This document shows, piece after piece, positions 3 through 30,862 of a stretch of DNA of 42,786 nucleotides (within the stretch, counting starts at the first letter, position 1; the number at the start of each line of letters is the position of its first letter). Source of the DNA: an uncultured Faecalibacterium sp. (GTDB lineage: Bacteria; Bacillota; Clostridia; Oscillospirales; Acutalibacteraceae); NCBI GenBank assembly GCA_964491165.1, contig CAZBFI010000001.1:1-42786 (forward strand). Direction: 5' to 3'. Below the pieces are notes generated by a model that was not told the origin of the DNA, did not search any database, and was given only the letters and a program-made list of their open reading frames with translations. Made by a program: the position numbers and the translations under genes.

Positions 3-2150
3 GATATTCTTGCCGCTTGCGGAACTTACTCAACAGAAAACAACATGGGTGTAACTGTTTCTTCAATCACCCACTCCGGTCTTACGATTTGGCAGTATAT
101 CTTTGAGCCTATCGTTTATTGGATGGAGAACGTTCTCTTCGTTTCACCCGTTAAGACCATCGCTGAGCTTCTTCCGAACCTGCTCACTCTCCTTGAGTAT
201 GACCAGCTTCTTCCCAAGCTCAAGAATATTGTTGTTGATATCAACGCAATCGTAAAGCCCGTTGGTATTACAGTTAACATTGATGTTACTGTTCTTAACC
301 TTTCCGAGATCATTATGCCTCTTCTTGAGGGTCTCGGCTTGAATGCTGAAACCATGAAGACAGGTATCAGTGGCTTGCTGGCTGCACTTCTCGGTGGTAC
401 GAGGACGACAAATTATAACAAAGATGAAGACGCAAGTTGGTTGATGAAGGTCGAAAAGGTCACCAAGGAAGACGAATTCGGCAATAAGGTCACAACCAAT
501 GTAACAAGTGACATATATCCGGCTCAATGGAAAGCAAGTGACGGAAAGATTTACTACATCAAGAATCCGGGTCTTTTGACCTCGGCTCTTTACGGCATGA
601 TGCTCAATGCCGACGATCCGGCAACTGCTGAAGAAAATGAAACACTCAACAATGCTTTCCTTGATTGGATGTTCATGAACGGTGGCTCGGTTGCACAGGT
701 ACCTCTCCAGATTCCTGTTAACCGCTTCATGTCAACCGGCTCACTCAGAGGCGGTGACCACCCCAACAATGAGTATGCAACCATTCAGGGTGTTTTCGAC
801 GGCAATATCAAGAACTATCATATCTATTCCGATCCGGGTGCCACATTGCTCACCCTGCTTCGTTGGCTCCTCAACGACGGCACACTTGATATCCTCATGC
901 CTCTCCTTGAGGGTCTCATCACTCCCACAAAGAATGCAGATGGCACAGAGTCAAGCATTCTTGACACAATCGTTCCCATCATTGACGGTCAGGCTGATAC
1001 CCTTATGGCTATCATCATCTGCTTGCTCAATGACTATGTAATCAACTTTGAAGCATTCCAGGATCCTGCTCAGGACACTGAGAACTGGGGTAAATGGAAC
1101 GCTGAGGGTACTGAATTCACAGGCTTCCTTAACAAAGACGGTTCTTCAAAATTCACTGTCGGTAAGGTTCTCGAAGAGTATCTTTCACAGAAAAATGTTA
1201 ACATTACAGCTGACGAGCTTGCAAGCAAGAACTACACCGATGCTGACCTTATCGCTAAGGCAGACCTTGCTGTTGCAAACGCTGATAAGCTTATCAACTC
1301 TCTCATAACAACAATCGTTGTTGCTCTTGAGGGAACACTCATGAACATTGACATCGTCAGAGATCTCGGCTTGGGCGACATCATCGACCAGATGAAGCAG
1401 TCCATCGCTGATGTCGGTGTTGCAAAGGTTACTCTTGAGGACATCGTTTCCGAGGTTGTCATCAGTAACGAGCTTGTTGACCTTATCATGAACCTTGTGT
1501 TCGGTGACGGTCTTCCCAAGCAGGCAACAGACGCCAACGGCAATAAGATTCAGGCTAAGTCTGACAGTGCCACCATGACTCTCGACGGCAAAACATATTA
1601 CATTGATGCCGGCACAGAAAATGGCGAACCTGTTGTTGACGCTGACGGCTATCCCGTATATGTAAGCGCTACAAATAAGGTTGTCGATGAGGAAGGCAAC
1701 GAGACAGATGAGCTTGAATTTGCCGTTAACGAGGGTATCCTTGCAGGACTCATGGGCGATCCCAACAGCATTCTTGTTAAGGTTCTCGACGCTCTCGGAC
1801 AGTTCAACCTTGACATCACTCCCGCAGGCTTCTATAAGCTCTTCACAGACAATTCAACAAGTGCTTATAACACCCAGCTCGCAGCATGGCTCAAGGCTCA
1901 GGCTGTTAAGCATAATAATGGCGTTGACATTGCAAACAATGATGTTTATGATTACATCAAAGACAACATGACATGGGGCAATGTAAGAGCTCCTAAGGGT
2001 ACAAAGTGGTTTGAAGAAGATGGAGATATGAGCGTTCGTTTCGACAACTTCGGTGAAATGCTTTGCGACCTGCTTGCACCTCTTAATCCCATTCTCGGCT
2101 TCCTGCTTTCCGGTCAGGATATCCTCCTGTTCGACGAGCTTAAGCTTCAG
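3..2150 (+). repeat. giant-protein unit 0 (partial, B-like)
   Basis: Opens inside the post-core block (PVKTIAELLPNLLTLLEYDQ, nt 147-206; compare PISTILELVGTVSYFVANNG in unit 8). It continues with ICLLNDYVINF (1020-1049), NLDITPAGFY (1806-1835) and TWG (1971-1979). Unit phase is arbitrary: I start units at the GxxGY core. Confidence 0.7.
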
Positions 2151-17100: not shown

Positions 17101-20100
17101 AGAAGGCAGATGTACTTATGTATCTTCTTGCAACAGTATTTACAGATGACTTCCTGACTCTCATTGCAAAGCTTGCCAACCTTGAAGCAGGCACAATGAT
17201 CGGTGATGTTGTCCTCGGTCTTGCAGGCGATGAAGATGTTGTTATCAACCTCATCTCAATGCTTCTCAACGAGTACAAATTGGTATACAACAAGTATGCT
17301 CAGATTGACATCACAAAGATCAATGTCGATCCCAAGGCTCCGCTTACAGATGAAAATCTCAAGCAGGCAATTCAGGCAATCGACGGCCTTGTTCCGGCTC
17401 TTATCGGTCTGTTCGTTAAGGATGCAGATTCACTTGCCGGCTTGGTTGAAAACCTTGTTGCAGGCGCAGACCTCGGCAATCTCCTTATGAACATGCTCGT
17501 TCCCGTTCTTTCGGGTCTTGACCTTGAAGAAATTCTCGGCTATGTCAAGGAATTCTCCAACCTTGATATCAAGCTTGATGCATCTGCATGGGCTTCGGCT
17601 GATTCTTCAATCGCAGCATTCATCAAGGCAGCAGATGACCTTGACGGTAACGGCGAAATCTCATGGGCAGAAGTTGAGGCATTCTATACTCAGTATGAAT
17701 ACACTTACACAGTTCCCGCTGTCGGTGTTGAAGGTGAAGAAGGCTATGTTGCAGCTGAGACTGTAACAGTATTCAAGCCCGCAGGCACAACAACTATCAC
17801 CGTAGGTGAAGGCGAGAGCGCTAAGACTTATGACCTTGTTGCTGTCAATAAGTACGAATACACTTATGAAGCTGTTAAGGCAGACGGCACAACAGAGACT
17901 AAGACAATCGTTCTTGACAAGGCAGGTCTCACTGAAACCACTATCGGTGACGAAACCGTTCAGCTCACTTACTCAAAGGCAATCCAGAACAGCAAGATGG
18001 TCAGCGAATACAACTGGAACATTAAGACCTTCGATGATCTTAAGGACTTCGTTGTTGAGCTTCTCAAGCCCTTGGATGTCGTATTTGAGATTCTCCTTTC
18101 GGGTGGCGAAATCGTCGCAATTCCCGATAACAAGCCCGATGTAGAACCCTATCCCGCACAGATCACAATCCGTGGCGGTGAAGGCTACAACTTCGCTATC
18201 ATTCCTCTGTTTGAGGCTCTCGGTGCAACCGGACTCAAGACTCAGGCAGAATATGAGGCACAGGCAGCAGCCGACGGTTCACATCTCAAGTATGTTCTCG
18301 ATGTACTCTTCGCAGAAGTTGAAACGATTCTTGACGCTCCCATAACAGAGCTTCTTTCAAGACTCGCAAACATCTTCTACTTCATTGGAAACAACAGCAT
18401 TAACACTCTTGCAGACAACCTGCTTGCTCCGGTTAACACTCTCCTTGATAAGATTTACGAGGTATTCCCGATTTCTATCGCTATTGATGTTAACAAGCTC
18501 GGCGTTGCAGGCGCAAGCGTACTTGACACTGAATTCGGTACAGCTAAGAAGGGACTTCCCTCAGGCATTACCGTAAATGTTGAAGCAACCGGTCTCGCAA
18601 CTCTTCTTAACGACCTTCTTGCAGGCATTGAAATCAACGGTGCTAAGCTCGGTCTCTCACTTGAGCTTAACTGGATCGAAATCGCCGCTAAGATGGCTAA
18701 GACTGCTAACGCAGACCAGCAGAGCGTAACAGGTGCAGCAATTGAGAAGTTCGCTTCCTCAATGGATTACGATGCATACGAAGGCGTTATCGGCACAACC
18801 GAATACGCTGACGGCAAGTATTACAACATTAAGGGCGATGTTGTTGATACCTTCGTAACACTTCTTCAGGTTATCCTCACATCAGACAACACAGAGGCTA
18901 TTAAGAACCTCGTAACAGGTCTGCTTAAGGACGCTCCGACAGAGGTTAAGGATATTCTCAACGATATCCTTTCAGATCCCGATGCAATCGAGAAGCTTAT
19001 CGGTGTAGTAGTTCTTCTTCTCACCGGCGAAAGTGATCTCAGCGGTTATCCGTTCGAGTTCGTTTATAAGTTCCTCGGCAAGCTCGACTTCAATTACAGA
19101 TCAAATGAAATTGAATCGGCAATCGGTAAGTTTGACAAGATGATCGCAAGAGAGGCAGTTTCCGTAATTAAGCTTCTCGGCACTCCCGCAGCAGATGTTG
19201 CTGAAGCTGACTACTCCTTCTTCAACAAGATGGCAGTGGCTCTCGACGATGGCGATTCACTTGCAGACATCGTTGCATGGCTCCTTGGCGAGTTCGCATT
19301 CACAGGTGCAAACTTCGACGGACTCATGGCAATCATCAATAATCTCCTTGCAGATGCTATCACAGCAGAGCTTGCAGACATTATTTCAACAATTCTTCCC
19401 ATCAACCTCATGCCGTATGCATACGCAAATGCATCTGGTAATGCACAGCTTATCGCTTATGTCGCTAAGGCAATTCCTGCCGGTGCAGACGAAGACGCTA
19501 AGAATGCAGTAACATGGGCTGATGTAAGAAATGCAAACGCTACAAGCACAACAGTTGACGGCAAGACAACATGGACTTATAACGAGTCATGGAATGTTGA
19601 AGGTAAGGACGCATTCGTCAATACTCTCCTCGACCTTCTCAAGCCGCTTAACCCGATCCTTGACTTCCTGCTTACAGGCAAGAACCTCAGCTTCACAATC
19701 GACGGTGTCGAAATCTGGGGTGCAGACGGATATGCAAACGCTATCGTAACTCTCCTTAACGCTCTTGGCGCTAAGCAGTTCGGTATCGATGTTCCCGCAA
19801 CCGCAGAAACCTCAACAGAAGCTATCGGCTACATCATCGATGTACTTCTCGGTAAGGATGTAACTGAGCTCAAGGGTGAACCCGCAATCGAAACAACTGT
19901 TCATGTCAATGGCTTGGTAGATGTAATTTGCGAAGCACCGCTTACCTCAATTCTCACAATTGTCGGTAACCTCAGCTTTGTAATTGCAAACAACAACCTT
20001 GCTCCGTTGCTCAAGAATCTTCTTGCTCCGGTACTCGGTATCGTTGAGCTTGCAGAATCTCTCATCTCAATGGAACAGCTCGATGCACTCATCGCAGGTC

Positions 20101-23100
20101 TTGTAAACATCACTCTTCCCAACGGTAAGCCTCTCAACATTACCAACATCATCAACATTGCCGGTGAAGGCGGTGCAGATCTTGTTGCTCTTATCAACGG
20201 ACTTATCGGCGGCATTAAGGCTTATGAGAAGATTGACGGCAAGCTTGTTGAGTATACTCAGCAGCAGGTTGAAGCTGATACTTCAGGCGCAACCTATGCA
20301 GAAGTTACGGTTAAGGACGAAAACGGTCTTGAAAGAACTATCTACTGTAAGGTTCTTCAGGTTATCAACATTCTTCCCGACGACTTCTTCGTTGACCTTG
20401 CTAAGTATGTCGTTGAAGACAGTAAGCTTAACGGCGTTGCCGTAACAACAGTCGGAAACGATGTAGACGAATGGACAATCAATGTTTCAGACGCTTTGAT
20501 GTATGTTCTTTCAATGGTTCTCGATTATGACTTCTTCGAGACAATTCTCAAGAAGGTCGGACTCGATCTGAGTCAGGGCATCGGTGAGACAATTCTCACA
20601 ATGGCTGACAAGGAAAATGAGCTTATTGACATCATTGTAATGCTCCTGAATGATTACAAGGTTGTATATTCAAAGATTGAACAGCCTGTTCTCACAGATG
20701 CAACAACTCCGTACAGCTCATTCGGTAAGGATGAAAGCGGTAAGGATCTGCTCAACAATGGAAACACATCAAAGGCTATCGCAGCTCTTGATCCCATTCT
20801 CAACACGGTAATTGCAATGCTTGCCGACGGCAAGACACTCGGCGGTCTTGTTAACGGACTTGTTGCAGATGCCGATCTTGCAAACCTTATCATGAACGCT
20901 CTTGTTCCCGTACTTTCAGGACTTGACCTCGATGCAATCCTCAAGTATGTCAACGAGCTGACAAATATCAACCTTACAACTCTCGATCCTGCACTTTGGA
21001 CAGAGAATGACAAGGTTAACTTCGGTTCACAGCTTAAGAACTTCATCAATGCAGCAGCAGACCTTGACGGTGACGGCAAGCTCTCCTGGGCAGAGGTTGA
21101 AGCATACTATACTCAGTATGAATACACATACACCGTTCCCGCAGTCGGTACAGAAGGCGCAGAAGGTTATGTTGCAGCTAAGACCGAAACAGTCTTCAAG
21201 CCCGCAAACACAGCAGAAATCACTGTTGGCGAGGGCGAAGGTGCAAAGACTTATGCACTCACTCCGGTTTATACCTATGAGTACACCTACCTTGATGCAC
21301 AGGGCAATACTCAGACCTATTACTCAGCAGAGAAGAACCTGACTGTTGCTGATGTTGACAACAACGCTGAAACACCCGATGTTGCAGTAGCTTATGTTGA
21401 CAAGGCTCAGAACAGCAAGATGCTCAGCGAGTTTGACTGGAAGATTGACGATCTTAACGATCTCATTCCTCTTGTCTGCGATCTGCTCCAGCCCTTCGAC
21501 ATCATCTTCCAGATTCTCCTGTCAGGTAAGCCCATCATCGCTCTTGAAGACGAAACAGGCAACCGTGCAGATGTCAGAATCATGGGTGGCGTCGGCTACA
21601 ACTATGCAATCATCCCGCTTCTTGAGGCATTCGGAGTTTCCGAGCTTAAGACACAGGCTGAATATGATGCACAGGTAGCTGCTGACGGCTCATCACTCAA
21701 GTATATCCTTGAGGTTCTCATCGGTGAAGTTAACGATATTCTCGAAACTCCGCTCAATGAGCTTCTCTCAAGACTTGCTAACCTCTTCTACTTCATCGGC
21801 AGTGACGGTATCAACACCATCGCCGATAACCTGCTCGCTCCTCTCAACACTCTCATTGCCGAGGTTGACGATCTCTTCCCGTTGGCAATCAGAATTGATG
21901 TTGCAGCAGACAGCATTCTCCAGACTTACCTCGGTAAGGCACACGACGGCGTTCCGGCAGGCATCACAGTCAATGTTTCCGGTGCTGACCTTGCAAAGCT
22001 TATTAACAGCTTGATTGATGAAATCGTAATCGGTTCAACAACAATCAATCTCAGCCTTGACCTTAACTGGACAGCACTCGCTGCTAAGATGGCTAAGAAG
22101 GATACAGACGGAAAGATTCTCACAACAGGTACAAAGCAGGTATACAATATCGGCACTGTTAAGAATCCGGAGGCAGCTGACCTTGTAAATCTTACAGGCG
22201 ATGCAGCTAACGCAATCGTAACGCTCCTTGACACAGTTCTCACTAAGGACAACTGCGAGAACATTTATAAGCTTGTTGACAGTCTCCTTCCCGCAGACTT
22301 CGATGCAACAATCAGAGGTCTCATCATGGATATCGTCGGCAGTGAACAGTCCATTAAGGGCGTTCTTGCAGCAGTCGTTCTCCTGTTGACCGGTGCTTAC
22401 GATGTCGAAACTCTCGACTATGTATTCAAGTATCTCGGCGTTCTCAGCTTTGCAAAGGCTGACGATGCTAAGACAGCAATCGCAAGTCTCGATAAGGCAC
22501 TCGTTAAGGCAGTTCCCGTGATTATTGAGCTTCTCGGTAAGGGACAGACAGACCCGAACAATATCCTTTACAAGCTTTACAACGGCACAAAGGATCTTGA
22601 GGGCGGTTCAAGCCTTACAAACATTGTTAACTATCTGCTTAATGACCTGCTCTTCACAACTGATATGATGAGCACAATCACAGGCGCACTTCTCGGTATC
22701 CTCAAGGGTCTCAGCGCTGACCTTGTCGGCACACTCAAGGATATCCTCGGAATCGATCTTGCTCCCGTTGCATTCGCAGCAGCATCCGGTAATGCTGAGC
22801 TTATCAGCTATGTCGGCAATGCTGAAACATGGGCAGAGGTTGCAGCCGCACACGGCACAGAAGTTCCTGTATACGAAGCAGACGGTGTAACTCAGGCTAA
22901 GAATGAGGACGGCTCACCGAAGACTAAGACAGTCTACGATCCCGTATTCGCAAATGCTGACGGTAAGAACGCATTTGTCGGCGCTCTTCTTGACCTGCTC
23001 AAGCCTCTCGAAAGCATTCTCGCATTCCTTCTTACAGGCGAGGATCTCACAATCACAATTGAGAATAACGGTGAAAAAGCAACTCTTACTCTCAAGGGTG

Positions 23101-26100
23101 GTAACGCATACGAAACAGCTATCGTTCCGCTTCTCTTACAGGGTCTCGGACTCGAAGAGATAAAGACCGGCACTAACAAGTCCGTTGTTAACGGTGCAAC
23201 TGCTGTTGACAACGCAAACGATGCAATCAAGGCAACTCTCGATTACATTCTCGTTGACCTTCTCGGTGCAATCGAAAAGGCTCCGATTTCAACAATCCTC
23301 ACAGTTGTTGCAAACCTCGGCTACTTCATTGCAAACGACGATGTCGCAGTTGTTATCCAGAACCTTATTGCTCCGGTACTCGGTATCGTTGATGCACTCG
23401 GCGGTGTAATCTCAAGAGCTCAGCTTGACGCTCTCATCGAAGGTCTTGTTAAGGTAGAGCTTCCCAACGGTAAGAAGCTTAACCTTACAAACATCATCAA
23501 CATCGCAGGCGATAACGGTGCAATACTTGTCGATCTCATCAACGGCTTGCTTCCCTCAATCGAAATGAAGGATCCTGCAACCGGCGAGGTAATCGGTGTT
23601 GTTAATGCACTTCCCAACACATTCTTTGTTGATCTTGCAAAGGCAGCCGTTAAGGTTGTTAAGCCGACAGGTAGCCTTGCAGTCGGAACAGCTGTAACAG
23701 AGTGGACAACAGATAACGGCGGCGCTATCATGTATGTTCTTTCAACAGTTCTCACAACTGACTTCCTCAACATTCTCTGTGATATGCTCGGACTTGAGCC
23801 GACAGACGCAGAGGGTAATGAGAACATGGTTTACAACATCATCATGTCACTTGCTGACAGTGAAGATGCAGTAATCGACCTTCTCCTCATGCTTCTTAAC
23901 AGATACCTCGTTGAGTATAAGGGCTACAACCTGCCTGTACTCGATAAGATCGATGTTAAGTATTCATCAGAAGCCGACCACAAGCAGTTCAATCAGGTTA
24001 TCTCCAACCTCGACGGACTCATCCCCGTTCTCCTTGATCTTCTTATCAAGCCGGACGAAAACGGAAATAAGGCTTCAAATCTCGCAGATATCGTTTATCC
24101 GTTGTTCGTCAAGGACGATATCGCAAACATGCTCGTAAGTGCAATCGTTAAGCTTCTCGCAGGTCTTCCCGCTGATACACTTACCATGATTGAGGGTTAT
24201 GTAAACGATCTTACAAGCCTCAAGAACGGTAGCGACGCATCAGGCAACGAAACCTTCAGCATTGCACCCGCAGCATTCAAGAACGGCAAGTTCGGTTCTA
24301 AGCTCGCTGCTTATATCGGCAACGCTCAGACATGGAATGATGTCTGGATGGCTCACAGTGCAGAACAGGTTAACGCTGAGACAGGCGAAACAGAAAGAGT
24401 TGCAACAGCTTACGCTTGGGGCATCTCAAAGACTGATGATCTCATCAATCTTGTTTCCGACTTCTTAATGCCTCTTGACTGTGTACTCAGCCTTCTCCTT
24501 CAGGGCGGTATGGTAAGAGCTGACTTTGACGCAAATGACCCGAACAACACCTTCGTCGGTAAGACACTCTCCGTATTCGAAGAAATCGCAATCAGCGGCG
24601 GTAGCGGTTACAACTACGCAATCGTTCCCTTGCTTGAATTGCTCGGCATCACACCTAAGACTCAGGAAGAGTACGATGCTTATGTCGCAGCACATAACGG
24701 CAGCACCTTGCATTATGTACTTGTTGCAATCTTCGATAAGGTTGACGAAATTCTCGCAGCTCCGATTGAAAATGTGCTTGATATGCTTGCTAACATCTGT
24801 TACGCACTCGGCACAGGCAGCATTGCAACAATCGTTGAGAATCTCATCGCACCTATAAATCATGTGATTGAGGCAGTTGATCCCATCTTCCCGATCGCAA
24901 TCCCGATTGATATCGGTGCACTCATCAACGGCGGACAGCTTGAAACTTACCTTGGCAAGTCACATGAAGGCATTGATGCCGGCATTACCTTCAAGCTTGA
25001 GGGTAACGACATTGCAACGCTTCTTGAAAACATCATCGCAGGCATTGCAATCGGTGGCACAGCACTCAATCTCTCAGTTGATTTTGATTGGATCACTCTT
25101 GCACGCGCCGCAGCAGCAGATGCAAACGGTGACGGTAAGGTTGACTTCAACAGATCGGTAATGAATGGTAAGTGGGATATCTACAACGGCGACGCTTATA
25201 AGAACCTTGTTGCAGATCCCGGTGACACATTCGTAACCTTAATCAAGACAATTCTCACTAAGGAGAATTGGGAAGCTATCAAGAAGGCACTCAACATCAA
25301 CTTGGGCGACTTCGACAGCATCATTGAAGATATCATCAATGATCCCACATCAATCATCGGTCTTATCGGTCAGCTTCTCAACGGCGGTTCAGTAAATTAC
25401 ATCCCCGTTCAGAACAGAAAGGTTGAAGTTAAGAGCTATAACTACACAACCTACCTGTACATGACAGAGCAGAATGCCGATATCATCGCAGCAAATATTG
25501 ATAAGCTCATCAATGATATCCTTTCAAAGACAGACTTCGGCTCACTCAAGGGTCTTGTCGGCGGCTTACTTACCAATGACCTCGCATCTAACCTTGTCGG
25601 TATGATCACCGGCTTGCTCGGCGGCGACAGCATCAGCGGTATCCTCAGCACAGTCGCAGGTCTCACTTGCGGTGAAGACGCAATCCTCGTTGTATACGAC
25701 GCAGCAGGCAATGTTCAGCCTCTCAATCTTGACCTTACAGTTCAGGGTTACGCTGCAAAATATGCAACATACAAGAACGCAAATGTTGAATTTGCTAAGA
25801 GACTTAAAGCAGCAAACACATGGGCAGATGTTGATGTATCAGGCATCAACTGGGGTGTAAACGGCACAGTCACAAGCTTTGCTAACGCACTCGCTTCAAT
25901 CCTCAATCCTCTTAACAATGTTCTCGAGCTTCTTCTTATCGGTGAAGGCAAGACACTCGGTGTACTTCCCGGCAAGGACGAAAACGGCAACTATGTCAAG
26001 GATGAAAACGGAATGCCCACTTGCGTTGCAAACATCAAGGGTGGCAACGGTTACGATTACGCAATCATTCCTCTCCTCGAAGCATTCGGTCTCAAGGCAA

Positions 26101-27125
26101 GCGAGGTTAAGAACATCGCAGCTTATAAGAACAGCTTCAATGCAGATAATGCTCAGCTCATGGGTTATCTCCTTGAAAGAATCGGCTTCTTCGCTGACAG
26201 ACTTCTTAACAAGCCCGTTGACGGACTTCTTACAATCCTTCCCAACGTTGCATACTTCATTGCAAACGAAGGTGTTGGCCTCGTCGTAAGAAACCTCATC
26301 GCTCCCGTATATTCAATCCTCAGCGTTCTCGGCATCGACCTGATGTCCGTACTCAACATCAGTGACTTGCTCGGCAGCATCGAAATTCCCATCAACCTGC
26401 TTGGTGAGAAGCTCGGTCTCCACCTTCCCAACATTGATTGGATGAAGCTTGCACAGGAAGGCGCATCTGAAATCGTTGAAGTTGCAACTTCACGCTCACA
26501 GGCTGCTAACTCCTATGTAAACGAGCAGAGAATCAAGAATGCAAATGACCTTGCTAATTACATCAGCACATATCCCGAAGCACCTTACGGTTCAAGACCT
26601 AACAAGACAACTCAGACCAATATCGTAGCAGATAAGGGTGACGTTCTTACACTTGTATTCACATGGCTCTTCGAACTGTTCGAGGATAAGGATAATCAGG
26701 AAGCTCTTGTACAGTGGATCGTTGCAACCTTCAATCTCCAGTCCGGTGCTGAAGAGACTGTAAGATATGCTATCAACCAGCTCTTCCTCAAGGCTCAGAT
26801 CTATAACGCACCTGACATCATCGTCGGTGGTCTCTTCTCAGCTCTCGGTATCGCAATCATTATCGACAACGCTCTCAGAGGCAACATTGCCGAGGTACAG
26901 AAGATCTTCAAGGAGCTCTTCGGTGCAGCCGGCAGCGGCGGATGCTCATACGCAAGCATCGCTAAGATCATGGAAGATCTCACAGGTGTTTGGGATGTTA
27001 CAATCGGTTCAGATGACGACCATCAGGGTGCAGTTGATGATGCAGAAGAGACACTCAACTGGTTCCAGAGACTTCTTCAGAAGATTAAGGACTTCTTCGC
27101 TAAGATCTTCAGCATCTTCAAGTAA
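3..27125 (+). CDS. giant acidic modular repeat protein, 5'-truncated by the window (9,040 sense codons visible); function unknown
   Basis: One stop-free frame runs from nt 3 to the TAA at 27123-27125. Codons 3-44 (DILAACGTYSTENN) are in frame without a stop. No Shine-Dalgarno precedes the ATG at 45. The first residues align to the middle of the internal repeat unit, so the true start is upstream of the window. The whole body is tandem 480-750-aa units. A strong terminator follows. Confidence 0.9.
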   Translation, partial: DILAACGTYSTENNMGVTVSSITHSGLTIWQYIFEPIVYWMENVLFVSPVKTIAELLPNLLTLLEYDQLLPKLKNIVVDINAIVKPVGITVNIDVTVLNLSEIIMPLLEGLGLNAETMKTGISGLLAALLGGTRTTNYNKDEDASWLMKVEKVTKEDEFGNKVTTNVTSDIYPAQWKASDGKIYYIKNPGLLTSALYGMMLNADDPATAEENETLNNAFLDWMFMNGGSVAQVPLQIPVNRFMSTGSLRGGDHPNNEYATIQGVFDGNIKNYHIYSDPGATLLTLLRWLLNDGTLDILMPLLEGLITPTKNADGTESSILDTIVPIIDGQADTLMAIIICLLNDYVINFEAFQDPAQDTENWGKWNAEGTEFTGFLNKDGSSKFTVGKVLEEYLSQKNVNITADELASKNYTDADLIAKADLAVANADKLINSLITTIVVALEGTLMNIDIVRDLGLGDIIDQMKQSIADVGVAKVTLEDIVSEVVISNELVDLIMNLVFGDGLPKQATDANGNKIQAKSDSATMTLDGKTYYIDAGTENGEPVVDADGYPVYVSATNKVVDEEGNETDELEFAVNEGILAGLMGDPNSILVKVLDALGQFNLDITPAGFYKLFTDNSTSAYNTQLAAWLKAQAVKHNNGVDIANNDVYDYIKDNMTWGNVRAPKGTKWFEEDGDMSVRFDNFGEMLCDLLAPLNPILGFLLSGQDILLFDELKLQGENGFSKGIVAIFEALGLTTACMSQNSFDNFVYTAAPGTDPANYTNENNVDVDELSKGTLPDGRTKRFAETKNSPLKPLMVAIKELLIGMGDEAGLLDAPLTVLFSKLPNIAYNLYNFKGENGKNTCNFSIAVKNLISPITKILEIVDPVLARVVNLDINELLDSFLDLESLVNNLLGSLVAEGTEATSIHIFDFGKLAADSSTVDRNAKTYRHGADKFTNFVGSPGKLLITLVRTILTKDVVDAVGRLIEGIFNKDTADKTEEELEADQRVRNIISMISTNLCKADTKGELEGGAYVDYLTSIVIDILTDYEPDNGEFYFYEIINRVDEDLIKAEDQIAAMGTVDNPKYAVKHEGYDWDAVPADPNDASKKLYTQDEVEKAIENIDYVVRKAVPAVFATLHDEGIIGGNLAEEFSGENGLWVLLQDLLNGLILKDDALNTITNLLTNLLGASAGSSTTGIIQQALKSAGFDITFNAFLYESDGSKSAVFDYLTYGFKKDASGDLVPAASGGYDMYQLTDGTEAELTWAQVYKNHSYNVYAFDENGELILNDDNTPKLAVVQVQNTRQIGDTTEYEYKYTDASGNIQKVWLAEAGKTEYVVGTDTFTLTASTVDKMENDKPVYEYALLTTAYPQETQDGKYVYTYTDSDGIEQTYTSEYQQLKVLKSAEKDDQGKDIFYTLTAVYSKDTTKKLWTWGIDEAADFSAKKNALLDILWSVLSPFAKIFSTLFAGDALKLFDNTLNIEGGYGYKDYILPIMRAFGLDTILSKLGAEKIAEMNKAHADGDKIPDALMTNDEYLALVYNNNAGSADRELDVDGLGQAVKQIINYVFYFVEILATYPVETLSNALPTLAYFLYADGLTTVVSNLLVPLTTLTNRLSEIIDLDINALGAGLIDMLATGSWENFQLALNSFVYIDPETGNLVTNLDKDISLTYSLFTLLTNLEFDLSGIVGSDDIYGGKYGIVLFLDKDAEHHAKALNKQADELAEADATANADQIAQLREEARKSRADALKSFLGSIVALGDPVSAYKNEANEYIYNNYADYVYVSSNGQVNVSKSEVVMFLLDFIFENQTLKEIIGKLLGYDITDENTADAELLDEIITNVFNNPEVLVDLIVALLVDYDVQKIVGVELKTLEAENHFQFYEDAGYTSHQDVLDHNNNLPEGEEKVTEISRVKTSATIDNLDNLVGTILNLFKSELTKEGGLFAQFGLTADDDITLQALVDAIFETYLYDDKGLNGIMDMLIGLLGGESSAQIVNIVLDILKGAGYDLTPASFKTNVPQLAETIGDAKKWSEVVKNNSKYEYVVKNEDGDVVETLYADEAKLTEITVDGVVKTVTPVMIQQQESRKATDAEGKEYTEYKYVYSVKNEAGELVDTVVWLKEAGKTEWIETPADEATGTAEVKHVVEAVMVDTTKQKTAVKINATWGLKTRDDFVDMLWNCIKPLAPLFAALFCEGDLTVFDKITIKGAAGYEGFVLPLINALGIPVLKANKNADGTWSDDTSTANENEGELYLAADKYYTYDQYKAAVYGADDVFGTEDDNAKIMLTTITDALFALVDSLCARPVATLLTIIPYLAHFIESDGIDMILSNLLVPITTITTMIEKIYKVDLLGIVKDLLRGLIKNLNDNAGQPTDSTDPAAQGTTSAAAAAYVLTAVENVERTSGKSGFETSVAALAETNPAPAIDLSGDDSSNYTFKDIIVELVNGLSINGTKLSSIIDADTVFLDLASIAWIPKTIVVDGVATVQPSQKITVTIYEDRASGVASRSEATEYTVDRESVLINLLNDIVFTPGIRDLIGGLLKYDFSDEKMTTLTEEDSEYLLTVLLYGVFEDPEALERLLIDLLSWYDLEYQDARVSKKDFSDINSTSTAIDYDAIGLDKAQMEKLPEDFDSLIAKIVPAVIGMLPDGALGDLKLEGANLEEMVHNLLADLMMDKEVEGSTTVKSGLATQLVQLLVSTLGGNATVSMIVGLLPSIVDGVDIELKDFKKVNAAFNAYFADYNTWAEAYEGLKSVKKYVASTDSTADVPAHDADNNLYATDANGKPVAEYALDENGAKIPVYANGNKVTDDWGSEWYTSAGTPATDDEQPLENTYVVKTADGKIVYGYQYELVLKDTDSFGVKNYDDILELVSQILAPFAPIFRFLLTEDDLVLLDGVHLTGGDGYDRFIIPLFEVLGVDNYIGSDKFLDKHAFAALDNTAFTAKVVEYIDAVISMVVNTPIQTIVDLVPELVFFVYSDGLAQAVEQFVAPLLTLIDMVNDITAKEIEIQGREDKLVALDIVALITDLVNNGIMTPNKLAEIDGFYGDNGLITRVLSGQGLEELLQGLLTNANTYIYAYEYTVPADSAVEGSTDTVVTVYLDSAELDGTDYQPDSEKTGTYTLTAVHEKNKTPISLGLDKDADGVVDAEQITGIFKWLIQKIAKVEKVDTVRYFGADGAGNNRKVWGVVANRADTLVQVISETLLGGNMITSLLETFGVKLDGTVQTILDAVTGENRYVIFQVLLKYFNEYDVETMVMDYLSFEKVEYAYDTYVEGTNLTQRKLRRAIKKLDGSILTVIPELVPILAENELVKTLLEKIGGYHGQSLKDLVHELLEAYVFNDETMNSIMGLLVGLLGGESLEGTLATVLPLVRDIVDIDITPYGFYEATSSDAIKAYMKEAFDAFPSAPVVDGDGNPVLESDGTPKLTTIENDFTWKDLADYYTKYVYTYNEVTTTTKYEYTYEKDGVTEHYYVESKIEDTTKLVITIDGVDYALTASMNGENQVTKDFYSYNTISKYSSDSDLNGTPVEGVDGKTWFAYEQATDENGNLLWYDEANGIPTAKTVDVTDENGTVIGTEMVRATRVNALNGEEAFDWGIDSAENYEGRKDAFIDVFAGILVPLEGVLNFLLRGESLRILPDESGNGEVLEFYGNNGYDNVIVPLFKALAVDQFGTIMSTDEYVAGKNSAVTLTAITDGIFTILEALTDGPIEYLLTLLPSLSYFISCNGPEIILNNLLSPILALLNLADPIVGDLLDDLLGKTLSGVFGAYMPDDIKYEIATDYKSPVYAEVEEGVDADGNAIMVKVPATDNGKTVIFKDKTYYITAGDGNVIDGEYVVTTTTDAEGNTIPVFETYKSYALTDLLKICGENGDNLIKIINGLVGPLLLGNDATDAEIAAFEILPATFFEAYAEHAITINKAGAGASYYYWYENAEGKLVKIAQDYYDVSMGEIKAARYVVDWFKVDIADSAVYLLDSVLSESLLREIAKLANIDVDDSSNILGVILKNLIEGKFNGLVVADIITALFENYTITYNELYGEYIVPNHDHLNNISADDQAKAERVPAQLDTIIEEALPIVAPILSDLFAPKDGKEPTIINDIFDNYATIADDEAVADLYEIVEYLLDDMIWSDEMVNTIAALIVNLVGDGGVIGTVLDYVGVTGIKLDPQNYLATVKKAYGAKAEMNEAVAALAGIIGTAETWADVVKNDTTPLYAYEYVSGKNDKDEDIKTTVYLADASLDGEAYTVAEEDYILAAVKDADGNHVVKAEFNVDGVADITWGVNAATDKKDAFIKALAVIVEPLFPVLQLVLQGKILTLVGHDKASYEPVNMFEYDADGAAHKVIDDSRTGNEIGNGYIELMGVNGYEELLVPILDAVGGLEAFGAYSADNTDGIMTAAEFCSINNAYDMLAYIVNVVFGFVNKLVANPFEYLATYLPSLLYFIGSDGVYNAIQSVLQLVNALIAIVEPLIGSDGIKLSDTLSLPLDLKMLKLEDTVVIENVFNAETGVNEEKKTTIKGLCSMINDLLPGSTAFKLTKDMILKLAGYLGEYKVIDTVRSTASTALVKYDAETGSMVYVDKDGNVISDANPAEKNKITTIVGNTKYTLTGLLQFALADGLVGSIVDTSTVTGILKTILDNVMGEDATANVSAVIIKLLNKYVVEYKAIEEPAEALSNVGVDYTKYGVEHADVQTALQNLQNLIPGVLSLLNLGSVQDLVADNLYTDKLVNGIINLFIGLLGGFDENTWNLVVDILGYVRDIVGIDIDITPAHYAENAVLADFINAVEKRVDEQGNELELTWADVAKHYTKYEYRYKVEDAKPATETEAATDAKYVTVYFANADLDGQKHIPTEGTYAGKEFTLEKVETVKYEYKYTVVENDTSVEKTFVSDESDLTEYKVGDATYVVTYVGEVRTHNNKVESDFVWGLADIAELNGKADKLVDILAALLSPLDDLLALLLSGGVYESDGTEYGDSLGAFKEINIMGGSGYNYAVIPFLEALSVPAASIKSQAEYEASIETDGALGYILKTVLHTVNDNLDTPLDFVLGLFANLAYTVSKNGLTTIVSNLIAPLSELIKAVECVIPVAIKIDLMALIDGGSIAEILLGDEVELKNAEVGLTLDLDGDTLEALVAKLIAKYLSGFDIIVDFEDIASKTAKLDETGNIIYSDSKVDPKWDNCVGTPGKNIEGDPSATIVTLLTMLITPENVEALLKMLNVDLSTLPAELVTIINNAIDNPDALIGAIIKLLASNYELDSALTMIFYFLGESEYDYSSVDGGKNAVEKAIAKFDKMVNNLIPKILKLLGNDLETPVAIIADIYNGLGEDAANANIKTIVDYLLNDLVFNDKMMNTLLTLVVGLLGGMDANTFATVANIVKEVLHIDITPAGIAAISKTEGGKIAAFIESHVTDETTLDELTWNDITAAHQYYEYRYKTKDAVGTEGSEGYVAAEYATVHFADANLDGTDYTVDSKTYKLEAVVNDKDERVTKTVLDEAWNVTDKDSFLGILYEITAVIEPLLAFLFKGEDINIIIDDLHLVGNNGYENAIVPLAKALNIDINENAGSFENANDMLKEVINGIFGLVEKVEAAPISTILELVGTVSYFVANNGVEIVLKNLITPVTSLVSLFGEVVTMDDVNALLKKYINISLDEITGIAGEDGSKLVSLINGLLPKVEVVGEDGAVRVIEPLPAKFFEIMSSYAISYDSLTAAQKNDENIRKLAVNNWSVKKADVLMYLLATVFTDDFLTLIAKLANLEAGTMIGDVVLGLAGDEDVVINLISMLLNEYKLVYNKYAQIDITKINVDPKAPLTDENLKQAIQAIDGLVPALIGLFVKDADSLAGLVENLVAGADLGNLLMNMLVPVLSGLDLEEILGYVKEFSNLDIKLDASAWASADSSIAAFIKAADDLDGNGEISWAEVEAFYTQYEYTYTVPAVGVEGEEGYVAAETVTVFKPAGTTTITVGEGESAKTYDLVAVNKYEYTYEAVKADGTTETKTIVLDKAGLTETTIGDETVQLTYSKAIQNSKMVSEYNWNIKTFDDLKDFVVELLKPLDVVFEILLSGGEIVAIPDNKPDVEPYPAQITIRGGEGYNFAIIPLFEALGATGLKTQAEYEAQAAADGSHLKYVLDVLFAEVETILDAPITELLSRLANIFYFIGNNSINTLADNLLAPVNTLLDKIYEVFPISIAIDVNKLGVAGASVLDTEFGTAKKGLPSGITVNVEATGLATLLNDLLAGIEINGAKLGLSLELNWIEIAAKMAKTANADQQSVTGAAIEKFASSMDYDAYEGVIGTTEYADGKYYNIKGDVVDTFVTLLQVILTSDNTEAIKNLVTGLLKDAPTEVKDILNDILSDPDAIEKLIGVVVLLLTGESDLSGYPFEFVYKFLGKLDFNYRSNEIESAIGKFDKMIAREAVSVIKLLGTPAADVAEADYSFFNKMAVALDDGDSLADIVAWLLGEFAFTGANFDGLMAIINNLLADAITAELADIISTILPINLMPYAYANASGNAQLIAYVAKAIPAGADEDAKNAVTWADVRNANATSTTVDGKTTWTYNESWNVEGKDAFVNTLLDLLKPLNPILDFLLTGKNLSFTIDGVEIWGADGYANAIVTLLNALGAKQFGIDVPATAETSTEAIGYIIDVLLGKDVTELKGEPAIETTVHVNGLVDVICEAPLTSILTIVGNLSFVIANNNLAPLLKNLLAPVLGIVELAESLISMEQLDALIAGLVNITLPNGKPLNITNIINIAGEGGADLVALINGLIGGIKAYEKIDGKLVEYTQQQVEADTSGATYAEVTVKDENGLERTIYCKVLQVINILPDDFFVDLAKYVVEDSKLNGVAVTTVGNDVDEWTINVSDALMYVLSMVLDYDFFETILKKVGLDLSQGIGETILTMADKENELIDIIVMLLNDYKVVYSKIEQPVLTDATTPYSSFGKDESGKDLLNNGNTSKAIAALDPILNTVIAMLADGKTLGGLVNGLVADADLANLIMNALVPVLSGLDLDAILKYVNELTNINLTTLDPALWTENDKVNFGSQLKNFINAAADLDGDGKLSWAEVEAYYTQYEYTYTVPAVGTEGAEGYVAAKTETVFKPANTAEITVGEGEGAKTYALTPVYTYEYTYLDAQGNTQTYYSAEKNLTVADVDNNAETPDVAVAYVDKAQNSKMLSEFDWKIDDLNDLIPLVCDLLQPFDIIFQILLSGKPIIALEDETGNRADVRIMGGVGYNYAIIPLLEAFGVSELKTQAEYDAQVAADGSSLKYILEVLIGEVNDILETPLNELLSRLANLFYFIGSDGINTIADNLLAPLNTLIAEVDDLFPLAIRIDVAADSILQTYLGKAHDGVPAGITVNVSGADLAKLINSLIDEIVIGSTTINLSLDLNWTALAAKMAKKDTDGKILTTGTKQVYNIGTVKNPEAADLVNLTGDAANAIVTLLDTVLTKDNCENIYKLVDSLLPADFDATIRGLIMDIVGSEQSIKGVLAAVVLLLTGAYDVETLDYVFKYLGVLSFAKADDAKTAIASLDKALVKAVPVIIELLGKGQTDPNNILYKLYNGTKDLEGGSSLTNIVNYLLNDLLFTTDMMSTITGALLGILKGLSADLVGTLKDILGIDLAPVAFAAASGNAELISYVGNAETWAEVAAAHGTEVPVYEADGVTQAKNEDGSPKTKTVYDPVFANADGKNAFVGALLDLLKPLESILAFLLTGEDLTITIENNGEKATLTLKGGNAYETAIVPLLLQGLGLEEIKTGTNKSVVNGATAVDNANDAIKATLDYILVDLLGAIEKAPISTILTVVANLGYFIANDDVAVVIQNLIAPVLGIVDALGGVISRAQLDALIEGLVKVELPNGKKLNLTNIINIAGDNGAILVDLINGLLPSIEMKDPATGEVIGVVNALPNTFFVDLAKAAVKVVKPTGSLAVGTAVTEWTTDNGGAIMYVLSTVLTTDFLNILCDMLGLEPTDAEGNENMVYNIIMSLADSEDAVIDLLLMLLNRYLVEYKGYNLPVLDKIDVKYSSEADHKQFNQVISNLDGLIPVLLDLLIKPDENGNKASNLADIVYPLFVKDDIANMLVSAIVKLLAGLPADTLTMIEGYVNDLTSLKNGSDASGNETFSIAPAAFKNGKFGSKLAAYIGNAQTWNDVWMAHSAEQVNAETGETERVATAYAWGISKTDDLINLVSDFLMPLDCVLSLLLQGGMVRADFDANDPNNTFVGKTLSVFEEIAISGGSGYNYAIVPLLELLGITPKTQEEYDAYVAAHNGSTLHYVLVAIFDKVDEILAAPIENVLDMLANICYALGTGSIATIVENLIAPINHVIEAVDPIFPIAIPIDIGALINGGQLETYLGKSHEGIDAGITFKLEGNDIATLLENIIAGIAIGGTALNLSVDFDWITLARAAAADANGDGKVDFNRSVMNGKWDIYNGDAYKNLVADPGDTFVTLIKTILTKENWEAIKKALNINLGDFDSIIEDIINDPTSIIGLIGQLLNGGSVNYIPVQNRKVEVKSYNYTTYLYMTEQNADIIAANIDKLINDILSKTDFGSLKGLVGGLLTNDLASNLVGMITGLLGGDSISGILSTVAGLTCGEDAILVVYDAAGNVQPLNLDLTVQGYAAKYATYKNANVEFAKRLKAANTWADVDVSGINWGVNGTVTSFANALASILNPLNNVLELLLIGEGKTLGVLPGKDENGNYVKDENGMPTCVANIKGGNGYDYAIIPLLEAFGLKASEVKNIAAYKNSFNADNAQLMGYLLERIGFFADRLLNKPVDGLLTILPNVAYFIANEGVGLVVRNLIAPVYSILSVLGIDLMSVLNISDLLGSIEIPINLLGEKLGLHLPNIDWMKLAQEGASEIVEVATSRSQAANSYVNEQRIKNANDLANYISTYPEAPYGSRPNKTTQTNIVADKGDVLTLVFTWLFELFEDKDNQEALVQWIVATFNLQSGAEETVRYAINQLFLKAQIYNAPDIIVGGLFSALGIAIIIDNALRGNIAEVQKIFKELFGAAGSGGCSYASIAKIMEDLTGVWDVTIGSDDDHQGAVDDAEETLNWFQRLLQKIKDFFAKIFSIFK
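2151..4385 (+). repeat. giant-protein unit 1 (long, B-like)
   Basis: Core GENGFSKGIVAIFEALGL (2151-2204). Post-core LPNIAYNLY...KNLISPI. Ends with a 171-aa Tyr/Thr-rich cassette (3729-4241). Confidence 0.8.
4386..6557 (+). repeat. giant-protein unit 2 (long, B-like)
   Basis: Core GGYGYKDYILPIMRAFGL (4386-4439). Post-core LPTLAYFLYADGLTTVVSNLLVPL. Also carries the MLIGLLGGESS and YDLTPASF blocks. Confidence 0.8.
6558..8636 (+). repeat. giant-protein unit 3 (long, B-like)
   Basis: Core GAAGYEGFVLPLINALGI (6558-6611). Post-core IIPYLAHFIESDGIDMILSNLLVPI. Confidence 0.8.
8637..10886 (+). repeat. giant-protein unit 4 (long, B-like)
   Basis: Core GGDGYDRFIIPLFEVLGV (8637-8690). Post-core LVPELVFFVYSDGLAQAVEQFVAPL. 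Also LLVGLLGGESL and DIDITPYGFY. Confidence 0.8.
10887..13010 (+). repeat. giant-protein unit 5 (long, B-like)
   Basis: Core GNNGYDNVIVPLFKALAV (10887-10940). Post-core LLPSLSYFISCNGPEIILNNLLSPI. Also ILPATFFEAYAEHAI and ALFENYTITY. Confidence 0.8.
13011..14876 (+). repeat. giant-protein unit 6 (B subtype)
   Basis: Core GVNGYEELLVPILDAVGG (13011-13064). Post-core YLPSLLYFIGSDGVYNAIQSVLQLV. Also KLLNKYVVEY, LFIGLLGGFDE and DIDITPAHY. Confidence 0.8.
14877..16532 (+). repeat. giant-protein unit 7 (A subtype)
   Basis: Core GGSGYNYAVIPFLEALSV (14877-14930) followed by KSQAEYEASIETDG. Post-core LFANLAYTVSKNGLTTIVSNLIAPL. Also the AIAKFDKMVNN block and LVVGLLGGMDA. Confidence 0.8.
16533..18173 (+). 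repeat. giant-protein unit 8 (B subtype)
   Basis: Core GNNGYENAIVPLAKALNI (16533-16586). Post-core LVGTVSYFVANNGVEIVLKNLITPV. Also PLPAKFFEIMSSYAI and MLLNEYKLVY. Confidence 0.8.
18174..19718 (+). repeat. giant-protein unit 9 (A subtype)
   Basis: Core GGEGYNFAIIPLFEALGA (18174-18227) followed by KTQAEYEAQAAADG. Post-core LSRLANIFYFIGNNSINTLADNLLAPV. Also AIGKFDKMIAR. Confidence 0.85.
19719..21584 (+). repeat. giant-protein unit 10 (B subtype)
   Basis: Core GADGYANAIVTLLNALGA (19719-19772). Post-core IVGNLSFVIANNNLAPLLKNLLAPV. Also LPNGKPLNITNIINIAGEGGADLVALINGL and MLLNDYKVVY. Confidence 0.85.
21585..23096 (+). repeat. giant-protein unit 11 (A subtype, close paralogue of unit 9)
   Basis: Core GGVGYNYAIIPLLEAFGV (21585-21638) followed by KTQAEYDAQVAADG. 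Post-core LSRLANLFYFIGSDGINTIADNLLAPL. Confidence 0.85.
23097..24596 (+). repeat. giant-protein unit 12 (B subtype, close paralogue of unit 10)
   Basis: Core GGNAYETAIVPLLLQGLGL (23097-23153). Post-core VVANLGYFIANDDVAVVIQNLIAPV. Also LPNGKKLNLTNIINIAGDNGAILVDLINGL and MLLNRYLVEY. Confidence 0.85.
24597..26048 (+). repeat. giant-protein unit 13 (A subtype)
   Basis: Core GGSGYNYAIVPLLELLGI (24597-24650) followed by KTQEEYDAYVAAHNG. Post-core LDMLANICYALGTGSIATIVENLIAPI. Confidence 0.8.
26049..27122 (+). repeat. giant-protein unit 14 (terminal, truncated A-like unit)
   Basis: Core GGNGYDYAIIPLLEAFGL (26049-26102). Post-core LTILPNVAYFIANEGVGLVVRNLIAPV. GDVLTLVFTWLFELFEDKDNQEAL aligns to the VDTFVTLLQVILTSDNTEAI block. 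The protein stops after the helix that aligns to the FDKM block of A units. Confidence 0.7.
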
Positions 27126-27159
27126 GTTTCACGGTTAACATCAACCGCAAACAAAAATC

Positions 27160-27194
27160 AATTCCCCACTTCGAAAGAGGTGGGGAATTTTTTG
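27160..27194 (+). terminator. rho-independent terminator of the giant gene
   Basis: Perfect 10-bp stem AATTCCCCAC (27160-27169) / GTGGGGAATT (27180-27189) with a 10-nt loop, running into a T-tract (27188-27193). It starts 35 nt after the stop codon. Confidence 0.85.
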
Positions 27195-27479
27195 CGTTGC
27201 CTTTCTTGGTCTTATGGCGTTGCCGTTCTTTAAGCAGGTAATTGGAAAAAGCGTGCGTATAGATGAGCTTAAAATGTGTTGTAAAAAGTGAGCGTAATCT
27301 CGCCCAAAAAGAGACAGCAATACCCATCAAGAAGCATTTTGACAGCGTCAGAAAGCTTATGACTTTTCTTTTCATCATGGAAAGCAGTGTACAACTTATC
27401 CGGCAGGGGAGAATTACGGGAAACAGACATTATTATTCTTGCAAAAGCCAAAAAGCTCTGCCGAAAAAAACACAGAACG

Positions 27480-27538
27480 CAAAAAAAAATATCCCCCTTA
27501 ACAACAATGAGTGAAAGCTCAGAGTCGTTGGGGGATAT
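27480..27538 (-). terminator. probable terminator of the peptidase-GDPD operon
   Basis: On the minus strand ATATCCCCC pairs with GGGGGATAT (plus 27489-27497 / 27530-27538), followed by a T9 run (plus A-run 27481-27489). The loop is large (about 32 nt), hence only moderate confidence. Confidence 0.5.
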
Positions 27539-27598
27539 CTGTAAGTTTCATGAAAATGTCCGGTGAATCACTGTCTTTCACGCTTTCCCGTGAAACAT

Positions 27599-28447: not shown

Positions 28448-28450
28448 CAG

Positions 28451-28504
28451 TTTTCACCTTTTCTTTAACTTGTTTTTTTCAAGTATACTATTAAAGGTGA
28501 AAAG
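28451..28504 (-). promoter_or_regulatory. intercistronic inverted repeat overlapping the GDPD ribosome-binding site
   Basis: Plus-strand TTTTCACCTTT (28451-28461) is complementary to AAAGGTGAAAA (28493-28503), an 11-bp pairing. On the mRNA the 3' arm contains the AAGGTGA Shine-Dalgarno of the GDPD gene. An inner ACTTG/CAAGT hairpin sits in the loop. Confidence 0.3.
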
Positions 28505-28513
28505 ATTCAAGCC

Positions 28514-29470: not shown

Positions 29471-29619
29471 TTATACCTCCTGTGATACCCGTGAGTTTTT
29501 TTGAAACGGGTAACGCTCCACGATTATAACATGAAAAAGGGGATTTTTTGTCAGGTAAATAATGTAAACCGAAAAGCTGAATATTTTTTCGTTAAAGGAA
29601 GCTTTTTTCAAGATAAGAC

Positions 29620-29648
29620 TTGAACATTTGCTTAAAATGTGTTAATCT
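29620..29648 (+). promoter_or_regulatory. candidate sigmaA promoter for the 29702 gene
   Basis: TTGAAC (29620-29625), 17-nt spacer ending in TGT (extended -10), then TAATCT (29643-29648). Confidence 0.4.
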
Positions 29649-29701
29649 ATTAAGTACATTAGCTAAGAATGAAAACTTTCAGTGAAAGGAAGAATAACTA
29701 T

Positions 29702-30382: not shown

Positions 30383-30401
30383 TTTCAAAGTGAAAAAACA
30401 A

Positions 30402-30852: not shown

Positions 30853-30862
30853 TTCACCCGTC

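Follow-up and report, generated by a model that had tools for sequence, protein, structure and literature searches.

A giant repeat protein without recognizable domains from an uncultured gut Acutalibacteraceae bacterium: a candidate exported, membrane-tethered surface fibre

Introduction

What kind of protein is encoded by a 27-kb reading frame in which no domain can be recognized, and what could such a protein do for the cell that makes it? This question is raised by contig CAZBFI010000001.1 (assembly GCA_964491165.1) of an uncultured Faecalibacterium sp. of the Acutalibacteraceae, of which positions 1 to 42,786 of the forward strand were analysed (42,786 nucleotides [nt], referred to as the window). 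The original prediction, made from the sequence alone, had taken the product of this frame for a new giant structural or surface protein. Based on the analysis described below, we conclude that the giant gene is genuine and intact and that purifying selection acts on it. As to the protein, we lean, with a slight preference and on the basis of its architecture, towards a polyanionic fibre or scaffold of the cell surface, exported by Sec and tethered to the membrane at its C-terminus.

The giant gene is real and intact

3..27125, plus strand: giant open reading frame (ORF), open on its 5' side at the window edge; 9,040 codons followed by TAA

In frame 3 of the plus strand, 9,040 sense codons follow one another without a stop from nt 3 to 27122, up to the TAA at 27123-27125, while the next-longest stop-free run in all six frames is 828 codons. 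The six-frame translation thus reproduced the extent given in the original prediction. The first ATG is located at nt 45. As had also been pointed out, the 14 in-frame codons on its 5' side are open (translation, DILAACGTYSTENN) and no GGAGG-like Shine-Dalgarno sequence is present in the bases before it (ACAGAAAACAAC). The protein is rich in Leu (11.7%), Ala (9.7%), Asp (8.4%), Val (8.3%), Ile (7.6%), Gly (7.5%), Thr (7.3%), Glu (6.5%) and Asn (6.4%), and contains only 0.28% Cys, in agreement with the predicted Cys-poor, D/E/T/L/V/N-rich composition, in which Ala had not been mentioned. The part encoded within the window carries a net charge of -732 and has a mass of about 979 kDa.

Giant repetitive ORFs are the classical source of metagenome chimeras, and the end of the contig falls within this gene. 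The possibility thus had to be considered that the frame results from faulty assembly, belongs to a decaying pseudogene or is non-coding DNA left open by chance. When the ORF DNA was compared with itself, only two matches appeared (67% and 73% identical), and exact repeats reach 25 nt at most; the repeats are so strongly diverged at the DNA level that repeat-driven mis-assembly is implausible. Six independent short-read assemblies (Logan contigs from SRR22923252 and SRR19576302/04/07/12/13) are collinear with window positions 17594-33422 at 99.66-99.84% identity, and in one of the six the same gene is called with 5,485 open codons. Pooled strain differences from the window amount to 36 synonymous and 10 nonsynonymous changes, with nonsynonymous sites about 3.3 times more numerous than synonymous ones, giving a ratio of nonsynonymous to synonymous rates (omega) of 0.06-0.2, far below 1. 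The GC content of the gene, overall and at third codon positions (GC3), agrees with that of the neighbouring genes. In about 50 species-level genome loci, the frame is open over the whole 10 kb upstream of the C-terminus, orthologues are collinear unit by unit, and chance cannot yield 9,040 open codons at 45% GC. The original prediction had named mis-assembly or interruption of the frame as its weak point; the independent assemblies and the orthologues show an uninterrupted gene, and we regard an artefact of any of these kinds as practically negligible. An origin from a phage, a mobile element or a defence system was considered as well and ruled out by the chromosomal housekeeping context, the native GC3 and the lack of PHROG or BFVD matches.

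An array of large, diverged repeat units

By self-comparison, a large and diverged repeat array was detected, extending from around amino acid (aa) 600 to around aa 8,900. With iterated hidden Markov models (HMMs), the protein within the window was resolved into one partial unit and 14 units of 424-743 aa, which start at aa 675, 1410, 2144, 2837, 3580, 4259, 4906, 5468, 6005, 6530, 7146, 7650, 8139 and 8617. Units become shorter along the protein: those close to the N-terminus have about 735 aa, those close to the C-terminus 424-504 aa.

3..2024, plus strand: partial unit (3' part of a unit begun upstream) and its variable region, aa 1-674, as delimited by HMM matches
2025..14717, plus strand: units 1-6, long type, 647-743 aa, starting at nt 2025, 4230, 6432, 8511, 10740 and 12777
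14718..25850, plus strand: units 7-13, compact type, 478-616 aa, starting at nt 14718, 16404, 18015, 19590, 21438, 22950 and 24417
25851..27122, plus strand: unit 14, fused to a conserved C-terminal module (nt 26133-27122, aa 8711-9040)

Every unit begins with a helix of the pattern W...F...L..LL.PL...L..LL.G, followed by a hairpin and the signature GGxGY..AIIPLLEALG, after which comes P...LL..LPNL.YF....G....NLLAP. Among units 7-13 two subtypes alternate, giving a super-repeat of about 1,100 aa. At the window edge, aa 2-75 match positions 64-134 of the 135-position HMM of the N-module, and on the unit HMM, aa 23-464 fall at positions 86-470. The first residues in the window thus correspond to middle and later parts of a unit, as had been predicted, indicating that the gene begins upstream of the window.

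Paralogous units within the giant protein share 22-45% identity, as against 55-75% between orthologous units, indicating that the units are old and individually conserved and have not been homogenized. Three loops of EF-hand type, which explain the near-threshold EF-hand scores in Pfam, lie within the array:

17637..17672, plus strand: EF-hand-type loop DLDGNGEISWAE, 25.7 bits with EF-hand_5, just below the cutoff of 25.9
21060-21095, plus strand: similar EF-hand-type loop DLDGDGKLSWAE
25119-25154, plus strand: similar EF-hand-type loop DANGDGKVDFNR

In the whole giant protein, 6 loops of the form D.[DN].[DN]G were observed against 1.2 expected.

The C-terminal module and tail

A conserved module outside the repeats makes up the last 330 aa; it shares 35-57% identity with five homologues and has 48 invariant columns in their alignment (A2). 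Two segments within it were considered as possible membrane anchors.

26808..26870, plus strand: hydrophobic segment PDIIVGGLFSALGIAIIIDNA, aa 8936-8956; Kyte-Doolittle mean 2.1, borderline for a transmembrane (TM) helix
27054..27122, plus strand: cationic amphipathic tail LNWFQRLLQKIKDFFAKIFSIFK, aa 9018-9040, 23 residues; proposed in-plane membrane anchor

The hydrophobic segment was rejected as a TM anchor, because the equivalent segment of the homologue P0005 carries Glu and Asp residues; judged from the sequence, it is more likely a buried helix. The tail at the extreme C-terminus has a hydrophobic moment (muH) of 0.66, the highest in the whole protein and not reached by any of 2,000 shuffles, a net charge of +4, and a face rich in Phe, Trp and Ile, as is typical of interfacial membrane helices. 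This moment is higher than that of the C-terminal tail of Escherichia coli PBP5, in what we take to be the sequence of the latter. A tail of the same basic, aromatic and amphipathic type ends 84 of the 172 family members that were examined for signal peptide and tail. In four others, P0001, P0080, P0135 and P0153, a classical TM helix with KKR or KKK behind it stands in its place, suggesting that tail and TM anchor are interchangeable. For an amphipathic helix at the C-terminus as a membrane anchor, PBP5 of E. coli provides a precedent (PMC2909392).

The secreted proteins of 1,650-1,860 aa that are encoded beside some family genes (see Genomic context) end in CxCxCHKDGF..IFRFFQKIxKFFT..CC.DPD, an amphipathic tail related to that of the giants, with Cys motifs on either side. 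Its occurrence there suggests that the tail is a modular element.

A large family in gut Clostridia

A word-indexed protein search retrieved one relative with a single unit and three with the unit alignment. The orphan status that this would suggest proved misleading, for an exhaustive HMMER search with the unit profile gave 629 clusters (representatives at 50% identity in public data) at E<=1e-3, including 368 at E<=1e-30. Many of the 629 are 2,000-7,700 aa long, with 5-16 matched stretches. The only name found for the family in any source is "hypothetical protein [Clostridia bacterium]", and no paper on the repeat unit, the C-terminal module or the tail was found in the literature searched or in surveys of giant proteins. 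The family proposed in the original prediction is therefore new in that it is undescribed; it is not unseen, since all of its 629 homologous clusters are already deposited, unnamed or as hypothetical. Scanning a genome collection with the C-terminal module gave 68 loci, the best 79% identical and none from a cultured isolate. Nearly all are metagenome-assembled genomes (MAGs) labelled Acutalibacteraceae, Oscillospiraceae or Clostridia, and they come from the guts of human, deer, sheep, goat, cattle, buffalo, rabbit and chicken. The closest genomes being MAGs of the Acutalibacteraceae and Oscillospiraceae, the Clostridia-like host that had been proposed is borne out.

A Sec-type signal peptide, e.g. 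MKLAKKTLSVFLSLLMIF, was found at the start of 126 of the 172 examined members, and signal peptide and tail occur together in 61 (strict heuristic). Under a looser heuristic 83 members are complete, ranging from 1,036 to 7,691 aa, and their length is correlated with the number of units (r = 0.94, about 540 aa per unit). Syntenic orthologues of 5,829 aa and about 10,260 aa were identified. The latter, L081 (ENA scaffold_717), is the nearest full-length relative. Its apparent split into ORFs of 3,344 aa and 6,933 aa was rejected, as the break is an N-run of the scaffold and not a stop. The joined protein starts with a signal-peptide core (..IMMIVSSCSVCFSVLGA..), and its units follow those of the window protein one by one, with 55-75% identity. 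Residue 2 of the window protein is aligned with residue ~1103 of L081 (64% identity over 2,213 aa), indicating that about 1,100 N-terminal residues are encoded outside the window and that the full protein has about 10,150 aa; the expectation of an upstream continuation beyond 9,040 aa thus receives an estimate of its size.

At the small end of the family, P0001 has 899 aa, a signal peptide, two units and a TM helix followed by KKK. In many signal peptides (P0013, P0015, P0018, P0041 and others, and L081) a Cys is located near the end of the hydrophobic core, e.g. ..LMAFSC.. or ..MIFSAC.., in loose agreement with a lipobox. A lipoprotein signal was rejected: P0005 lacks the Cys, the residues behind this Cys are hydrophobic in the others, and sites of AXA type are present downstream.

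Search for known domains and folds

Neither the whole giant protein nor its tail alone gave a match above threshold in Pfam-A or NCBIfam. Even at E<=1 there was no Pfam match of the giant to FIVAR or GA repeats, nor to SLH, cohesin or dockerin domains, apart from isolated sub-threshold EF-hand-like loops, and none was found to DUF5776 or SH3. The LPXTG motif gave no regular-expression match and Gram_pos_anchor no model match. For RTX repeats, a single GGxGxD at aa 2879, isolated and attributable to chance, was found without a tandem array or a HemolysinCabind match. YD repeats and the A, C and KS core motifs of nonribosomal peptide synthetases and polyketide synthases gave neither regular-expression nor Pfam or NCBIfam matches. 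The C-terminus is a conserved module and not a variable toxin domain. All this is in agreement with the original prediction, in which the hallmarks of known giant proteins had been described as absent.

When the unit profile was compared with all PDB sequences, only designed helical repeats were detected (E ~1e-4), and PHROGs gave one family without an assigned function (E 2e-4). By AlphaFold2, unit 9 was modelled from a 14-row alignment of paralogues with a mean predicted local distance difference test (pLDDT) of 60, and unit 13 from 24 rows, including units of homologues, with a pLDDT of 73.8 and a predicted template-modelling score of 0.61. The latter model shows a domain made up mainly of alpha-helices, with short beta hairpins; its residues ~60-290 reach a pLDDT of 80-90. 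With Foldseek, neither unit model matched the PDB (best E 3.3 and 1.2, template-modelling score ~0.1) or BFVD (best E 0.74), this structural comparison covering solved (PDB) and viral (BFVD) structures only. A significant match to an already described repeat family, against which the original prediction had set its claim, was thus obtained neither with Pfam, NCBIfam, PDB and PHROGs nor with Foldseek.

Proposed mode of export and attachment

Based on this architecture, the following course of events can be proposed. The protein would be exported by the general Sec pathway by means of a cleaved N-terminal signal peptide encoded upstream of the window. The cationic amphipathic helix at its extreme C-terminus would then hold it at the outside of the cytoplasmic membrane, in a manner like that of PBP5, while about 15 large modules, mainly alpha-helical and forming a strongly acidic array, would project through and beyond the cell wall together with the unique N-terminal region of about 1,100 aa. 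Such a very long fibre or scaffold could serve for attachment, spacing or matrix formation in this uncultured Acutalibacteraceae gut bacterium. The role as a stalk or scaffold is consistent with the correlation between length and unit number, the predicted helical fold of the unit, the net charge of -732 and the calcium-loop motifs. The giant structural or surface protein of the original prediction fits the Sec signal peptides and the putative C-terminal anchor of the homologues; from these we infer membrane tethering, extracellular extension and an adhesive or scaffold role. Partner genes for export or modification, which had been expected upstream, were not identified: the upstream contexts differ between complete relatives, and in the contexts sampled no secretion system or dedicated secretion gene recurs near the family genes, as would fit export by the general Sec pathway.

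Several points weigh against this proposal. The N-terminus lies outside the window, so that the signal peptide of the giant itself is deduced from orthologues. No adhesive or enzymatic domain can be recognized in the giant or in the N-terminal regions of its homologues, and the negative outcome of the structural comparison depends on a model of medium confidence (pLDDT 73.8). The units may have distinct functions rather than the role of a spacer, because the repeats of typical stalks are nearly identical and these are individually conserved. The tail, finally, could be a signal for sorting, oligomerization or wall binding instead of a membrane anchor.

The last point leads to two other explanations. 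The giant could be a released or wall-associated polyanionic matrix or coat protein, in which the helix serves for self-association (bundling) or for binding to anionic wall polymers. The extreme negative charge and the calcium-loop motifs would suit a cation-bridged matrix, the net positive charge of the tail could bind polymers of the teichoic acid type, and the Giants of Apilactobacillus kunkeei, which have a positively charged C-terminus, occur both on cells and in the supernatant (PMC12863079). The replacement of the tail in some homologues by a bona fide TM helix with a KKR stop-transfer sequence, however, points to the membrane as its target, as does the Phe/Trp/Ile-rich face; we consider a matrix or coat protein unlikely. 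Alternatively, the tail might be a sorting signal processed by dedicated machinery, as are LPXTG by sortase and PEP-CTERM by exosortase, thereby defining a small secretome of large proteins. It is modular, being present on giants of two subfamilies and, flanked by Cys, on the adjacent secreted proteins of 1,650-1,860 aa, and it matches no curated model of a sorting signal. Against this stand the finding that no candidate sorting enzyme recurs beside the genes in the seven sampled contexts and the fact that the tail has no TM segment with a basic cluster, as the known sortase and exosortase signals do, making a dedicated sorting signal quite improbable.

A place on the spore surface, as a component of coat, exosporium or appendage, instead of on the vegetative cell, is suggested by two genomes: in one, P0017 follows two CotH-kinase genes and YfhO, and the other, that of P0001, belongs to a spore-former with the SpoIIP and GPR genes nearby. 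The CotH context was found in only one of the seven sampled contexts, however, the SpoIIP/GPR cluster is a conserved housekeeping neighbourhood, and the neighbours in the window are genes of sugar metabolism. Since a Sec signal peptide also fits export across the cytoplasmic membrane better than deposition by the mother cell, a spore component appears highly improbable, and the membrane-tethered surface fibre remains the explanation that we prefer. A more far-reaching proposal would combine two ideas: that the units are not spacers but about 15 individually specialized modules of a new fold, each kept like its orthologue more than like its neighbours, which together form a surface organelle or scaffold of 0.1-0.3 um, and that the tail of FFQKI..FF type is an unrecognized anchoring or sorting signal of a dedicated secretome, made up of the giants and their Cys-flanked partners of 1,650-1,860 aa, in uncultured gut Oscillospirales. 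In this combined form the proposal is doubtful.

Comparison with known giant proteins

Giant surface proteins of Gram-positive bacteria with a signal peptide, a repeat array and C-terminal attachment are a known kind, to which the present protein belongs; its unit, module and tail are undescribed. Ebh of Staphylococcus aureus and Embp of Staphylococcus epidermidis are giant matrix-binding proteins with C-terminal membrane attachment (PMC7587433, PMC9302970). They resemble the present protein in megadalton size (~10,000 aa), Gram-positive host and membrane attachment at the C-terminus, which is proposed here. Their FIVAR/GA (F/FG) repeats, in contrast, are alpha-helical bundles recognized by Pfam, none of which is present in the giant, whose units of 424-743 aa have a GGxGY..IIPLLEALG signature of their own; and whereas Ebh and Embp have a TM segment, the anchor proposed here is an amphipathic helix. 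The present giant and Ebh/Embp are not homologous. Giant1-5 of A. kunkeei, of 3,000-8,000 aa, consist of a signal peptide, a distinct N-terminal region and imperfect alpha-helical repeats (PMC12863079). Signal peptide (in the orthologues here), distinct N-terminal region, long array of imperfect, alpha-helical repeats (predicted here), positively charged C-terminal element for attachment (proposed here) and a host-associated Firmicute as the carrier are common to both. The A. kunkeei proteins differ in having C-terminal wall-binding domains of the DUF5776/SH3b type, an N-terminal beta-solenoid and repeats of 62-366 aa (PMC12863079), while the present giant gives no match to DUF5776 and is unrelated to them in unit and tail.

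The likeness to PBP5 and PBP6 of E. coli, which are exported by Sec and kept at the outside of the cytoplasmic membrane by an amphipathic helix at the extreme C-terminus (PMC2909392), would be one of mechanism only; there is no sequence relationship, and the cargo here is about 25 times larger. From mammalian-gut metagenomes of Clostridia and Oscillospiraceae, West-Roberts et al. (bioRxiv 10.1101/2023.11.21.568195) described giants of 10,000-30,000 aa, for which adhesion was proposed. Those contain recognizable RCC1, Listeria-Bacteroides repeat, YG repeat, dockerin and LRR domains, none of which is found in the family with the GGxGY unit.

With about 1.1 MDa, the protein would rank with Ebh among the largest that have been recorded for bacteria. 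Its carriers are gut Clostridia that are common in humans and ruminants but uncultured. Since some 30 kb of the genome are spent on one gene that is kept under purifying selection, this gene must matter to the organism. The family is nameless, is covered neither by Pfam nor by NCBIfam models, has no structural relative in the PDB and is absent from the literature. Definition of the unit, the C-terminal module and the tail would allow hundreds of "hypothetical" giants to be annotated, and would give a handle on the contact of these bacteria with fibre, mucus or other cells. If the proposed tethering is true, it would represent a new way of anchoring surface proteins of very great size in Gram-positive organisms.

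Genomic context

27160..27199, plus strand: intrinsic terminator of the giant gene; 13-bp stem (27160-27189) with 6 GC pairs, 4-nt loop and T-run
27599-28447, minus strand: gene of the GDPD family, the first gene 3' of the giant gene

A strong terminator and a converging neighbour had been predicted at the 3' end of the giant gene, and both were found, the GDPD gene being on the minus strand and thus convergent with it. The genes farther downstream encode an SH3b protein with a C39-like peptidase, a hypothetical protein, GH3, GH2, an MFS sugar transporter, DUF554, EamA, an aldose epimerase and an NMT1-like binding protein. Outside the closest 6-8 genomes this synteny is lost. Neither Rfam models nor a tRNA scan gave a match in the window. 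The block of GDPD, SH3b with Peptidase_C39-like, hypothetical protein (237 aa) and GH3 (27599-33361) is inverted relative to the closest six to eight genomes (L013-L019), in which GH3 is the first gene after the giant gene, on the opposite strand. The 237-aa ORF (29669-30382, plus strand) has no Pfam match and is present, at 67-71% identity, beside the SH3b/C39 gene in the closest relatives.

Among the upstream contexts, those of P0005 and P0007 contain co-directional genes for secreted proteins of 1,650-1,860 aa, directly upstream of these two complete relatives (L008:4226-9802; L082:4689-9692 and L082:1-4363). These proteins are 26-44% identical to each other and show a weak match to the Listeria-Bacteroides repeat. 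Upstream of P0017 (MBQ6066663.1, subfamily 2, 7,691 aa), the YfhO-family gene and the two tandem CotH-kinase genes are found at L010:2804-9352. P0155 is preceded by VanY and P0035 by hypothetical genes. At L001:10001-15463, P0001 lies directly upstream of a gene for a 919-aa fusion of ABC_tran and FtsX (MacB-like), and is itself preceded by a 605-aa ORF without Pfam domains. P0044 (3,482 aa) is followed, at L086:13365-23117, by a dlt-like set of genes, encoding an AMP-binding ligase, a PLP decarboxylase-like protein, a PP-binding carrier and an MBOAT protein, after which comes another ORF of more than 2,500 aa.

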